A stretch of DNA of 64,000 nt, from NCBI RefSeq assembly GCF_013315695.1, contig NZ_CP054353.1; one strand, given 5' to 3'. The position numbers were made by a program. Each line of letters starts with the position of its first letter. The stretch's first letter is position 1. This stretch comes from Escherichia coli. Lineage in GTDB: Bacteria > Pseudomonadota > Gammaproteobacteria > Enterobacterales > Enterobacteriaceae. Shown piece after piece: positions 15,001 to 18,000 of the stretch.

Positions 15001-18000
15001 ACTGCCCGGCTGTATGCGCGAGGTTACCGACTGCGGCCTGAGTTTTTTAAGTGACGTAAAATCGTGTTGAGGCCAACGCCCATAATGCGGGCTGTTGCCC
15101 GGCATCCAACGCCATTCATGGCCATATCAATGATTTTCTGGTGCGTACCGGGTTGAGAAGCGGTGTAAGTGAACTGCAGTTGCCATGTTTTACGGCAGTG
15201 AGAGCAGAGATAGCGCTGATGTCCGGCGGTGCTTTTGCCGTTACGCACCACCCCGTCAGTAGCTGAACAGGAGGGACAGCTGATAGAAACAGAAGCCACT
15301 GGAGCACCTCAAAAACACCATCATACACTAAATCAGTAAGTTGGCAGCATCACCCGATGGGGATGTTCCTGGCACTGGGTGAAATAGTCGGTCGTAAACT
15401 CTCTTCACACGATATTATTCGCGGGCTGCGTGTCGATGGCGTAGGGACAATGATAGGCGGAACGTTTAACAGCTTCCCCCACACGTCATTTTCACAAAAC
15501 GTTGGCCTGGTTAGCGTGACGCGCGTTCATAGCCGCTGGGTGTGTATTTCTTCGGGAATTATATTAATCCTGTTTGGCATGGTGCCAAAAATGGCGGTGC
15601 TGGTCGCCTCCATTCCGCAATTTGTGCTGGGCGGTGCTGGGCTGGTGATGTTCGGCATGGTACTGGCGACAGGGATTCGAATTCTGTCGCGCTGTAACTA
15701 CACCACCAACCGTTACAACCTCTATATTGTGGCGATCAGTCTCGGCGTTGGCATGACTCCGACGCTCTCTCACGATTTCTTTTCTAAGTTACCGGCCGTA
15801 CTGCAACCGTTGCTGCATAGCGGCATTATGCTCGCAACCCTTAGCGCCGTTGTGCTGAACGTCTTCTTTAATGGCTATCAGCATCATGCTGATCTGGTGA
15901 AGGAATCCGTCTCTGATAAAGATTTAAAAGTCAGGACAGTACGTATGTGGCTTCTGATGCGCAAGCTGAAGAAAAATGAGCATGGAGAATAATATGAATC
16001 TTTTAATGCGCGCTATATTCAGTCTGCTGTTGCTTTTTACTCTCTCTATTCCTGTCATTTCTGACTGTGTTGCAATGGCCATTGAAAGTCGCTTCAAATA
16101 TATGATGCTGCTTTTTTAAATGGTTTTTACCTGTCGACATCCGCTCAAAACGGGCGGTTGTCGATAAACGCTCACTTGGTTAATCATTTCACTCTTCAAT
16201 TATCTATAATGATGAGTGATTAGAATTACATGTGAGAAATTATGCAAACGGAACACGTCATTTTATTGAATGCACAGGGAGTTCCCACGGGTACGCTGGA
16301 AAAGTATGCCGCACACACGGCAGACACTCTCTTACATCTCGCGTTCTCCAGTTGGCTGTTTAATGCCAAAGGGCAATTATTAGTTACCCGCCGCGCCCTT
16401 AGCAAAAAAGCGTGGCCTGGCGTGTGGACTAACTCGGTTTGTGGGCACCCACAACTGGGAGAAAGCAACGAAGACGCGGTGATCCGCCGTTGCCGTTATG
16501 AGCTTGGCGTGGAAATTACGCCTCCTGAATCTATCTATCCTGACTTCTACTATCGCGCCACCGATCCGAATGGCATTGTGGAAAATGAAGTGTGTCCGGT
16601 ATTTGCCGCACGCACCACCAGTGCGTTACAGATCAACGATGATGAAGTGATGGATTATCAATGGTGTGATTTAGCAGATGTATTACACGGTATTGATGCC
16701 ACGCCGTGGGCGTTCAGTCCGTGGATGGTGATGCAGGCAGCCAATAGTGAAGCAAGAAAATTGTTGTCTGCTTTCGCGCAGCACAATTAAAAAACCCCGA
16801 CATTTGCCGGGGTTGTGAGCATAACGTAATGCTTATTTCACCGGACGCATCGCCGGGAACAGAATAACGTCGCGGATGGTATGGCTGTTGGTGAACAGCA
16901 TTACCATACGGTCGATACCAATTCCCAGACCTGCTGTCGGCGGTAAGCCATGTTCCAGTGCGGTGACGTAATCTTCATCGTAGAACATCGCTTCGTCGTC
17001 ACCTGCATCTTTCGCGGCAACCTGATCCAGGAAGCGCTGCGCCTGATCTTCCGCGTCATTCAGTTCGCTAAAGCCGTTACCGATTTCACGACCACCGATA
17101 AAGAACTCAAAGCGGTCTGTGATTTCCGGGTTAACGTCGTTACGACGCGCCAGCGGAGAAACTTCTGCCGGATATTCAGTAATGAAGGTCGGCTGAATCA
17201 GATGTGCTTCTGCCACTTCTTCGAAGATCTCGGTAACGATACGGCCCAGACCCCAGCTCTTCTCAACGTGGATGCCGATAGATTCAGCAATCGCTTTCGC
17301 AGAGTCGAAGTTGTCCAGATCCGCCATGTCGGTTTCCGGGCGATATTTCTTGATCGCTTCACGCATGGTCAGTTTTTCGAACGGTTTACCGAAGTCCAGC
17401 GTTACGTCGCCGTAGGTCACTTCCGTCTTACCGAGAATATCCTGTGCCAGAGTACGGAACAGCGATTCGGTCAGCTCGATCAGATCTTTGTAATCTGCGT
17501 AAGCCATATAGAGTTCCATCATGGTGAACTCTGGGTTATGACGTACGGAAATACCTTCGTTACGGAAGTTACGGTTGATTTCGAATACACGCTCGAAGCC
17601 ACCGACCACCAGACGCTTGAGGTACAGTTCCGGCGCGATACGCAGGTACATGTCGAGATCCAGCGCGTTATGGTGAGTGATAAACGGACGCGCAGCGGCA
17701 CCGCCAGGGATCACCTGCATCATCGGCGTTTCAACTTCCATAAAGCCGCGGTTCACCATGAACTGGCGAATACCAGAGAGGATCTGCGAGCGCACTTTAA
17801 AGGTGTTGCGGGATTCATCGTTAGAGATGAGATCCAGATAACGCTGACGATAGCGCGCTTCCTGATCCTGCAAGCCGTGGAATTTATCCGGCAGCGGACG
17901 CAGTGCTTTGGTCAGCAGACGCAGCTCGGTACAGTGGATAGACAGTTCGCCGGTTTTGGTTTTGAACAGTTTACCTTTCGCGCCGAGGATGTCACCAAGG

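Follow-up and report, generated by a model that had tools for sequence, protein, structure and literature searches.

Small membrane proteins that bind a transporter or a membrane complex and modulate it often share an operon with their partner, as illustrated by KdpF and KdpABC, AcrZ and AcrB, MgtS and MgtA, and CydX and CydAB. The 41-residue protein YqfG of Escherichia coli shares several features with KdpF, AcrZ, MgtS and CydX: fewer than 50 residues, one helix, a gene that lies beside that of a transporter at a spacing typical of coupling, and synteny across genera. It has no sequence relationship to them (no Pfam or NCBIfam match), and a binding or transport role for YqfG is putative. A second comparison is with Sec signal peptides and the small substrates of the site-2 protease RseP (remnant signal peptides, HokB, YkgR, Blr and YshB), with which YqfG shares a short basic N-terminus, a hydrophobic core, a helix-breaking proline, a predicted N-in/C-out orientation and cleavage by RseP. 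Unlike a Sec signal peptide, YqfG has no mature domain and carries a conserved C-terminal S-R-F and hydrophobic tail that a signal peptide would not need; unlike the Hok toxins, no toxicity has been reported for it.

Experimental knowledge of YqfG comes from work on RseP. HA-MBP-tagged YqfG is integrally associated with the membrane (PMC4597795), in a predicted orientation that has a cytoplasmic N-terminus and a periplasmic C-terminus, and the tagged protein is cut within the membrane helix by RseP both in vivo and in vitro (PMC4597795, PMC10470546). These RseP data were all obtained with N-terminally tagged, plasmid-expressed protein, and the authors leave physiological relevance open. Chromosomal synthesis of YqfG is attributed to Hemm et al. 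2008, as cited in PMC4597795. Our literature search returned no paper linking yqfG with uacT or ygfU.

A catalogued small gene in a disrupted setting

The window analysed here is a stretch of 64,000 nucleotides of E. coli DNA (contig NZ_CP054353.1). Compared with K-12, it carries the same gene in the same slot between uacT and idi and only the setting differs: here uacT is truncated by IS1 and the upstream urate/purine cluster is missing. The features concerned are as follows.

14602..15299, minus strand: IS1A transposase genes insA/insB, belonging to the IS1 copy that truncates uacT (ORF listing; RefSeq 'IS1-like element IS1A family transposase' in the matching strain)
15357..15992, plus strand: 3' remnant of uacT (urate/H+ symporter), approximately the last 211 codons, a pseudogene (Pfam PF00860 Xan_ur_permease, profile positions 249-386 only)
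15984..15989, plus strand: Shine-Dalgarno-like GGAGAA inside the last uacT codons (direct read; GGAG-like motif at the same distance in homologues)
15994..16119, plus strand: yqfG, 41 codons and a TAA stop, coding for a small inner-membrane protein with a single helix (100% identical to WP_001050745.1)

Read directly, the uacT frame closes with TAA at 15990-15992, a single T follows at 15993, and the yqfG frame opens with ATG at 15994-15996 and runs for 41 codons to a TAA at 16117-16119, with the translation MNLLMRAIFSLLLLFTLSIPVISDCVAMAIESRFKYMMLLF. The GGAG core of the putative ribosome-binding site (15984-15987) ends 6 bases 5' of this ATG. A single hydrophobic helix is supported, because the best 19-residue Kyte-Doolittle window has a mean of 2.18 and the AlphaFold2 model consists of one helix over residues 2-40 (pLDDT 86.9). 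The first-pass annotation, made from the sequence, had described exactly this frame, starting one nucleotide after the uacT stop, preceded by GGAGAA and encoding one predicted transmembrane helix, and each of these particulars was borne out.

It had also called the frame unannotated, which is wrong for public annotation. We are highly confident that 15994-16119 is yqfG (b4684), a real and catalogued gene for a 41-residue, single-helix inner-membrane protein. RefSeq carries it, including in a strain that matches the IS1-uacT junction of the window at 100%. The peptide is identical at 41/41 residues to RefSeq WP_001050745.1 ('protein YqfG') and at 40/41 to the K-12 protein (b4684, YP_002791254.1), the sole difference being residue 3. 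The published residue numbering (I8, L11-L13 and F15) fits the window peptide, and I8-F15 is identical here. Position agrees with the annotated records as well: the gene lies on the strand of uacT, 1 nt past its stop, upstream of idi and lysS, and K-12 has the same 1-nt gap. Among 5426 complete E. coli genomes, 5384 (~99%) contain the region, and in 5352 the match has at least 95% identity and at least 80% coverage; each of the 29 full-length matches that we sampled across the ranking carried a yqfG annotation. At least 1000 contigs bear the identical sequence under the name 'MULTISPECIES: protein YqfG [Enterobacteriaceae]', and truncated or frameshifted alleles are rare, appearing in individual E. 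coli assemblies. Among curated protein families there was no Pfam match and only far-sub-threshold chance matches in NCBIfam, and Rfam gave no family at threshold, its one chance match, with the model of an Enterococcus sRNA, scoring 20 bits where the gathering score is 100. Thus the locus adds nothing to the gene catalogue, yqfG being b4684 in K-12, named in RefSeq and a decade-long model substrate of RseP; it does illustrate that a real gene of 41 codons can be picked out by reading the sequence alone.

The position of the Shine-Dalgarno motif and the cross-genus alignment support the 41-codon ATG as the start. Two longer in-frame starts, giving 47 codons (ATG 15976) and 45 codons (ATG 15982), were rejected as the main start: both lie inside uacT, occur in Escherichia only and lack a Shine-Dalgarno motif, and the 41-codon ATG is where the alignment across genera begins.

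It is worth noting that the gene designated uacT in the first-pass annotation does adjoin the small ORF at its stop codon, as stated, but is only a 3' fragment cut by IS1 rather than a full transporter gene. The IS1 element sits directly 5' of the remnant, and RefSeq annotation of the matching strain describes it as 'uacT, incomplete, missing N-terminus'. An IS1-mediated rearrangement has taken away 800 nt from the 5' end of uacT together with the uacT promoter and the adjoining purine/urate catabolic cluster, leaving yqfG as an intact but orphaned copy which, since the upstream promoter is lost, may not be expressed at all in this strain.

An under-annotated family beyond Escherichia

What is new here is the finding that conserved yqfG homologues, of 38-42 codons, directly follow uacT in at least eight named genera and in further genomes. 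The family is covered by no Pfam or NCBIfam model. A word-indexed protein search returned almost only Escherichia and Shigella, and the idea of a genus-restricted gene was dropped once the uacT loci of other genera were read directly; the apparent restriction arises because outside Escherichia the ORF is only sporadically called as a protein. The pattern shared by its members opens with M..LLR and a hydrophobic stretch, continues with (S/A)(I/L)P(A/V)(I/V) and ten variable residues, and closes with SRF and a C-terminus that is hydrophobic and aromatic. In an alignment of 30 sequences the core is gapless, and P20, R33 and F34 do not vary even where identity falls to 21%. A GGAG-like Shine-Dalgarno motif precedes nearly all of 23 aligned homologues and most of seven more divergent loci. 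Such an alignment provides a basis for building an annotation model for the family.

Substitution patterns point the same way. Pairwise Nei-Gojobori estimates of dN/dS across genera range from 0.04 to 0.44 (for pairs with dS of 0.26-1.5), and mean pairwise differences at codon positions 1, 2 and 3 are 0.43, 0.22 and 0.57, respectively. On this comparative sequence evidence, the YqfG family is under purifying selection. The first-pass annotation had named lack of conservation of the frame in close relatives as grounds for refutation; relatives showed no species-level frameshifts or stops, and the rare disrupted alleles noted above belong to individual E. coli assemblies.

Linkage to uacT

The genomic context of the family was assessed by running a family HMM on six-frame translations of 80 UacT-relative loci from species-representative genomes, with approximately 4 kb on either side. 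Matches were found in 22 of the 80, always as the ORF directly 3' of the permease gene and never elsewhere within ~4 kb. The other 58 loci retrieved contained no yqfG-like ORF, so UacT-type permeases do not generally need one. Seven divergent members, identified independently among 1.84 billion proteins with a profile search, lie at loci with ~65-67% blastn identity to Hafnia, and in all seven the ORF begins between a 1 nt overlap with, and 4 nt after, a gene for a Xan_ur_permease of 486-490 residues. Thus, in every YqfG-family locus examined (22/22 genome loci and 7/7 divergent loci), the linkage expected of an accessory subunit was found: the member directly follows the gene for a urate permease of the UacT type and shares its strand. 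The upstream neighbour is constant despite changing downstream genes, which include idi (Escherichia and Citrobacter), a gene for an fdhF-like selenoprotein (many other loci) and, elsewhere, other genes.

The suggestion that the ORF might encode a small membrane protein whose translation is coupled to that of the transporter holds for the protein, which is YqfG, and the geometry of coupling recurs in many loci without being universal. In Escherichia, Citrobacter, Klebsiella indica, Yokenella, Trabulsiella and the seven divergent loci, the ORF starts from a 1 nt overlap to 4 nt past the permease stop, with its Shine-Dalgarno motif inside the last permease codons. In Enterobacter, Raoultella and Kluyvera, the start is 52-88 nt past the uacT stop, behind a GC-rich hairpin. 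Translational coupling of uacT and yqfG is best regarded as an arrangement that we infer from gene geometry.

Possible roles of YqfG

The fixed place behind a transporter gene across genera suggests, though it does not prove, a role in urate uptake, because the ORF follows uacT whatever lies downstream. Tentatively, and with less than even confidence, we propose that YqfG is the founder of an unrecognised family of small membrane proteins, as yet without a curated model, that serves across the Enterobacterales as a dedicated partner of UacT (or of UacT together with a formate-dependent urate-reduction module), controlling transporter activity, stability or coupling to the catabolic enzymes, with cleavage by RseP as an off-switch. 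The synteny is compatible with such a family. In our main reading of the locus, yqfG would normally be co-transcribed with uacT; at loci of the Escherichia type, ribosomes terminating on uacT would restart at the Shine-Dalgarno motif and ATG in and after its stop codon; the protein would work as part of the module for urate uptake and utilisation, most likely as a small accessory or regulatory subunit bound to UacT within the membrane; and RseP would set its lifetime. Against the partnership stand the 58 UacT-relative loci without the ORF and a literature search that gave no physical or functional interaction between YqfG and UacT. Furthermore, in Enterobacter, Raoultella and Kluyvera, where the hairpin lies between uacT and the ORF and the ORF sits near the fdhF-like gene, a link to the downstream enzyme fits about equally well. 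The position of homologues behind uacT in many genera nevertheless offers a cheap and concrete hypothesis of a function in urate uptake or anaerobic urate use, the latter being of current interest for purine homeostasis in the gut.

A rather unlikely, if serious, alternative is that YqfG is a real small membrane protein that has nothing to do with UacT, being a general membrane or stress peptide or mainly a substrate of RseP, whose position is an accident kept by tight gene packing. The only experimental data tie YqfG to RseP and not to transport, most of the UacT-relative loci retrieved do without it, and in Escherichia the gene adjoins the unrelated idi. An accident of packing is, however, difficult to square with a place 3' of uacT that is kept at ~21-30% protein identity while downstream genes change, or with the finding that every family member in the loci examined lies beside a permease gene.

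The partner of YqfG could instead be the downstream fdhF-like enzyme of formate-dehydrogenase type, or other urate-reducing machinery, with YqfG serving, for example, to hold a soluble oxidoreductase at the membrane near the transporter and the Escherichia copy being a leftover after gene loss. The fdhF-like gene starts within ~45 nt of the small-ORF stop in five of the seven divergent loci (at 11-27 nt), in Enterobacter, in Raoultella and in Kluyvera georgiana; in these three named taxa the hairpin parts the ORF from uacT and not from the enzyme gene, and urate degradation by E. coli is reported to depend on formate (PMC12507026). We consider this improbable, given that purifying selection acts on the ORF in Escherichia, Citrobacter, K. 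indica, Yokenella and Trabulsiella, where no fdhF-like gene adjoins it, that in Serratia the fdhF-like gene directly follows uacT with no small ORF between them, and that an opposite-strand phosphatase gene intervenes between the small ORF and the fdhF-like gene at two loci (L082 and L089).

Less plausible still is that YqfG is a free-standing, signal-peptide-like precursor, cut by signal peptidase and/or RseP to release a short periplasmic peptide ending in SRF and the hydrophobic tail, or just disposed of in the manner of a remnant signal peptide. The n and h regions of a Sec signal peptide can be read from the alignment, with a basic residue 6, a 13-residue hydrophobic core and the invariant helix-breaking Pro20 followed by small residues (P-A-V-Q-A then A in Kluyvera and Raoultella; A-M-A then I in E. 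coli), and RseP, which clears signal peptides, does cleave YqfG. Yet the candidate cleavage motifs fall out of conserved register across the family, no mature domain follows, no signal-peptidase cleavage has been reported, and both AlphaFold2 and hydropathy depict one continuous helix; the tagged protein, moreover, behaves as integral to the membrane.

Finally, the alternative entertained in the first-pass annotation, that the ORF arose by chance, can be rejected, as can a frame held open by overlapping RNA-level or antisense constraint, the probability of either being close to nil: ORF length is not significant by itself because 61 ORFs of 25 codons or longer occur in the surrounding 4.5 kb, and many Escherichia copies have an open frame on the antisense strand as well, but what takes yqfG beyond chance is conservation and not ORF size, with dN/dS values well below 1 that exclude chance, excess variation at third codon positions, invariant motifs and constant length at 21-50% identity, a conserved Shine-Dalgarno motif, an antisense frame that is broken in K. 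indica, Yokenella, Trabulsiella and Kluyvera, and the lack of any Rfam family at threshold. The antisense ORF in the window (45 codons, 16003-16140) was accordingly discarded as a by-product of the Leu-rich sense frame, with stops in those same four taxa.

The region between yqfG and idi

Two further features lie at the 3' end of yqfG.

16132..16166, plus strand: GC-rich hairpin of 14 pairs with no T tract, 13 nt past the yqfG stop (RNA fold)
16116..16187, minus strand: yqfH, 23 codons, antisense, overlapping the yqfG stop and lying over the hairpin (RefSeq WP_120795390.1, 'protein YqfH')

Folding of 16105-16245 gave -42 kcal/mol (z = -4.7 against shuffled sequences), and a hairpin of different sequence occupies the same position in Escherichia, Citrobacter, K. 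indica and Trabulsiella. An intrinsic terminator after yqfG was considered and rejected: a scan 3' of the gene called none, and the hairpin, strong as it is, lacks a T tract. The structure probably marks the 3' end of a uacT-yqfG transcript or stabilises it. Its 3' arm overlaps the -35 element (TTGTCG) of the idi promoter, reported as TTGTCG-18-AATCAT (PMC3946193).

The YqfH sequence, MINQVSVYRQPPVLSGCRQVKTI, matches that of VanOrsdel et al. 2018 (PMC6001520). YqfH (b4753) is another small ORF of E. coli validated by tagging, and it too occupies the gap between uacT and idi. It differs from YqfG in lying on the opposite strand, in not being hydrophobic and in its conservation, yqfH being weakly conserved outside E. 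coli and even within Escherichia, whereas yqfG is conserved.

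Identity of the ORF downstream of uacT

The 41-codon ORF that follows uacT, the urate/H+ symporter gene, is the already known gene yqfG, and the first-pass annotation erred in calling it unannotated: public E. coli genomes carry it as 'yqfG: protein YqfG'. By megablast, region 15900-16260 was recovered from 5384 of 5426 complete E. coli genomes (5352 at coverage of at least 80%, all at identity of at least 95%), and that annotation was present in 29/29 full-length rows sampled across the ranking. The window's translation, MNLLMRAIFSLLLLFTLSIPVISDCVAMAIESRFKYMMLLF, is identical to RefSeq WP_001050745.1 at 41 of 41 residues, and at least 1000 contigs carry exactly this sequence under the name 'MULTISPECIES: protein YqfG [Enterobacteriaceae]'. 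In K-12 MG1655, where yqfG is b4684 (3032817-3032942), the gene begins one base past the uacT (b2888) stop and is followed by yqfH, idi and lysS; its product differs from that of the window solely by L3F. The features at the junction, as read from the sequence, are:

15984-15987, + strand: Shine-Dalgarno-like GGAG, six bases 5' of the yqfG ATG
15990-15992, + strand: uacT stop codon, TAA
15994-16119, + strand: yqfG, 41 codons from ATG (15994) to TAA (16117-16119), a single T separating it from the uacT stop

The start one nucleotide past uacT, the length and the upstream GGAG are thus as originally described. The single hydrophobic helix proposed at the same time is also borne out: the best 19-residue Kyte-Doolittle window of this strongly hydrophobic protein has a mean of 2.18, and AlphaFold2, run on an alignment of 30 sequences, gives a single helix spanning residues 2-40 (mean pLDDT 86.9).

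Published work places the protein in the membrane. [quoted passage not shown] Chromosomal expression goes back to the discovery report of Hemm et al. 2008, as cited in PMC4597795. Subsequently, chromosomally encoded RseP was found to cut YqfG bearing any of three different tags, and purified RseP to cleave YqfG in vitro, with the authors stressing that the physiological relevance of the cleavage is still to be shown (mBio 2023; PMC10470546).

Conservation and coding status

As 61 ORFs of at least 25 codons lie in the 4.5 kb around yqfG, a length of 41 codons is in itself no proof of a gene. A word-indexed protein search with YqfG returned almost exclusively Escherichia and Shigella entries, among them some variants with in-frame indels and, rarely, alleles that are truncated or frameshifted; its near-restriction to these genera arises because the ORF is seldom called as a gene elsewhere. 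Homologues were sought by reading the DNA past the permease stop directly, at 80 loci encoding UacT relatives in species-representative genomes, and a homologous ORF of 38-41 codons was found in two spacing groups:

Start 1-4 nt past the stop: E. coli, E. albertii, E. whittamii and other Escherichia lineages; the Citrobacter amalonaticus group, Klebsiella indica, Yokenella regensburgei and one Trabulsiella odontotermitis
Start 52-88 nt past the stop: Enterobacter, Raoultella and Kluyvera

A GGAG-like element stands 5-9 nt 5' of nearly all of these ORFs, and the two alternative sense frames are nearly always interrupted by stops. For sequence pairs whose dS lies between 0.26 and 1.5, Nei-Gojobori dN/dS ranges from 0.04 to 0.44, with the frame conserved across genera, and mean pairwise differences at codon positions 1, 2 and 3 are 0.43, 0.22 and 0.57. 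A profile of 18 family sequences returned 34 hits among 1.84 billion representative proteins, and the 23 sequences retrieved from these, mostly of 38-45 residues, share the same pattern. An alignment of 30 family sequences has a gapless core; down to 21% identity, P20, R33 and F34 do not vary at all and R6 and S32 hardly do. The substitution rates, codon-position differences, invariant residues and recurring GGAG-like site exclude a chance ORF, which had been the alternative reading. Whilst yqfG itself was already known, the wider uacT-tied family, for which neither Pfam nor NCBIfam holds a model, is a modest lead that makes the function of YqfG directly testable.

Within E. coli, rare alleles (P0018, P0024, P0039 and P0064 among the protein matches) carry in-frame length changes of +2, +4 and -3 residues in the Leu-rich core and include one C-terminal frameshift allele, present on 7 contigs, which indicates that yqfG either tolerates a degree of variation or is lost from time to time.

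Linkage to uacT and a proposed role

When six-frame translations of the 80 loci were searched with a YqfG-family HMM, 22 matched, each time at the same-strand ORF that immediately follows the permease gene, with no other match within ~4 kb either side. Seven divergent family members among the profile hits, traced to their encoding contigs (L082, L084, L085, L089, L090, L092, L094), all start between a 1-nt overlap (ATGA) and 4 nt past a Xan_ur_permease gene of 486-490 residues; ygfK-like, ssnA-like or ygfT-like genes lie upstream, and an fdhF-like molybdopterin oxidoreductase gene begins 11-27 nt downstream in five of the seven. The constant neighbour is the upstream UacT-type permease gene; the downstream one varies, being idi in Escherichia, Citrobacter and K. 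indica, the fdhF-like gene at many of the remaining loci, and different genes at the rest.

Because the Shine-Dalgarno-like element is embedded in the last permease codons and the ORF lies directly 3' of uacT, yqfG is probably co-transcribed with uacT and translationally coupled to it, the geometry being classic for both. The suggestion that the ORF encodes a small, transporter-coupled membrane protein is thus supported by linkage and published membrane association, with the coupling itself read from gene geometry. YqfG may work within a urate uptake and utilisation module, in the simplest form as a small membrane partner of UacT whose turnover would be set by RseP. No paper in the searchable literature mentions yqfG together with uacT or ygfU.

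Against partnership with UacT stand the 58 of 80 loci without a yqfG-like ORF. In Enterobacter, Raoultella and Kluyvera (L020-L023, L026, L030-L032), moreover, the 52-88 nt spacer holds a GC-rich hairpin that parts uacT from the ORF, and the fdhF-like gene follows within roughly 45 nt in the Enterobacter and Raoultella loci and Kluyvera georgiana. This arrangement, unlike the Escherichia type, may be separately regulated, and leaves room for a tie to the downstream enzyme rather than to UacT. A signal-peptide-like nature is possible, given a basic residue, a 13-residue hydrophobic core and the invariant Pro followed by small residues, but the register of candidate cleavage sites is not conserved in the 30-sequence alignment.

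The fdhF-like gene beside uacT-yqfG is often split, in several metagenome assemblies, into ORFs of 139 and 559 residues, as would be expected if gene callers took an in-frame selenocysteine UGA for a stop.

The region 3' of yqfG

16132-16166: GC-rich hairpin of 14 pairs (RNA fold), 13 bases past the yqfG stop
16116-16187, - strand: yqfH, a known gene of 23 codons, antisense over the hairpin

The 141-nt fold that includes the hairpin, which stands between yqfG and idi, has an energy of -42 kcal/mol (z = -4.7). Other Escherichia, Citrobacter, K. indica and Trabulsiella also have a hairpin at this position, differing in sequence with changes on both arms. The hairpin of the window has no T tract, and a terminator scan made no call there; its 3' arm and the -35 element of the idi promoter, reported as TTGTCG-18-AATCAT (PMC3946193), overlap. 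It may serve as terminator, RNA stabiliser or promoter-occluding structure. The antisense yqfH shares 4 nt with the end of yqfG, stop codon included, and is much less conserved than yqfG, with 61% identity in E. albertii and partial matches only in other Escherichia lineages.

An IS1 rearrangement upstream

15357-15992: uacT 3' remnant, approximately the last 211 codons (Pfam profile positions 249-386)
14602-15299: transposase ORFs of the IS1A copy cutting uacT
~6713-7410 and ~4723-5420: further IS1 copies

The section of the window at 12800-15450, the IS1-uacT junction included, matches E. coli MSB1_4I at 100%, and RefSeq annotates yqfG in that genome. There, a GH15 gene, tRNA-Gly, actS, xdhABC and a truncated ygeV-like gene lie between oppositely oriented IS1A copies, a block that appears inverted relative to the K-12 gene order; the DNA that would run from the remainder of ygeV, through the ygeW-ygfT cluster for purine and urate breakdown, into the 5' part of uacT is missing. 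With uacT cut by IS1A and the upstream cluster gone, the yqfG of the window, though intact, is therefore orphaned: it lacks its native upstream promoter and may be silent.

A third IS1A in MSB1_4I disrupts ETT2 type III secretion genes. Abutting the IS1 copy in the window is a 495-codon ORF (13121-14608, + strand), whose last codons overlap the IS1 end. Its N-terminus resembles that of a lipoprotein, and it matches Glyco_hydro_15 weakly (E = 9.6e-6); RefSeq names it 'glycoside hydrolase family 15 protein' and places its start further in, at ~13163.
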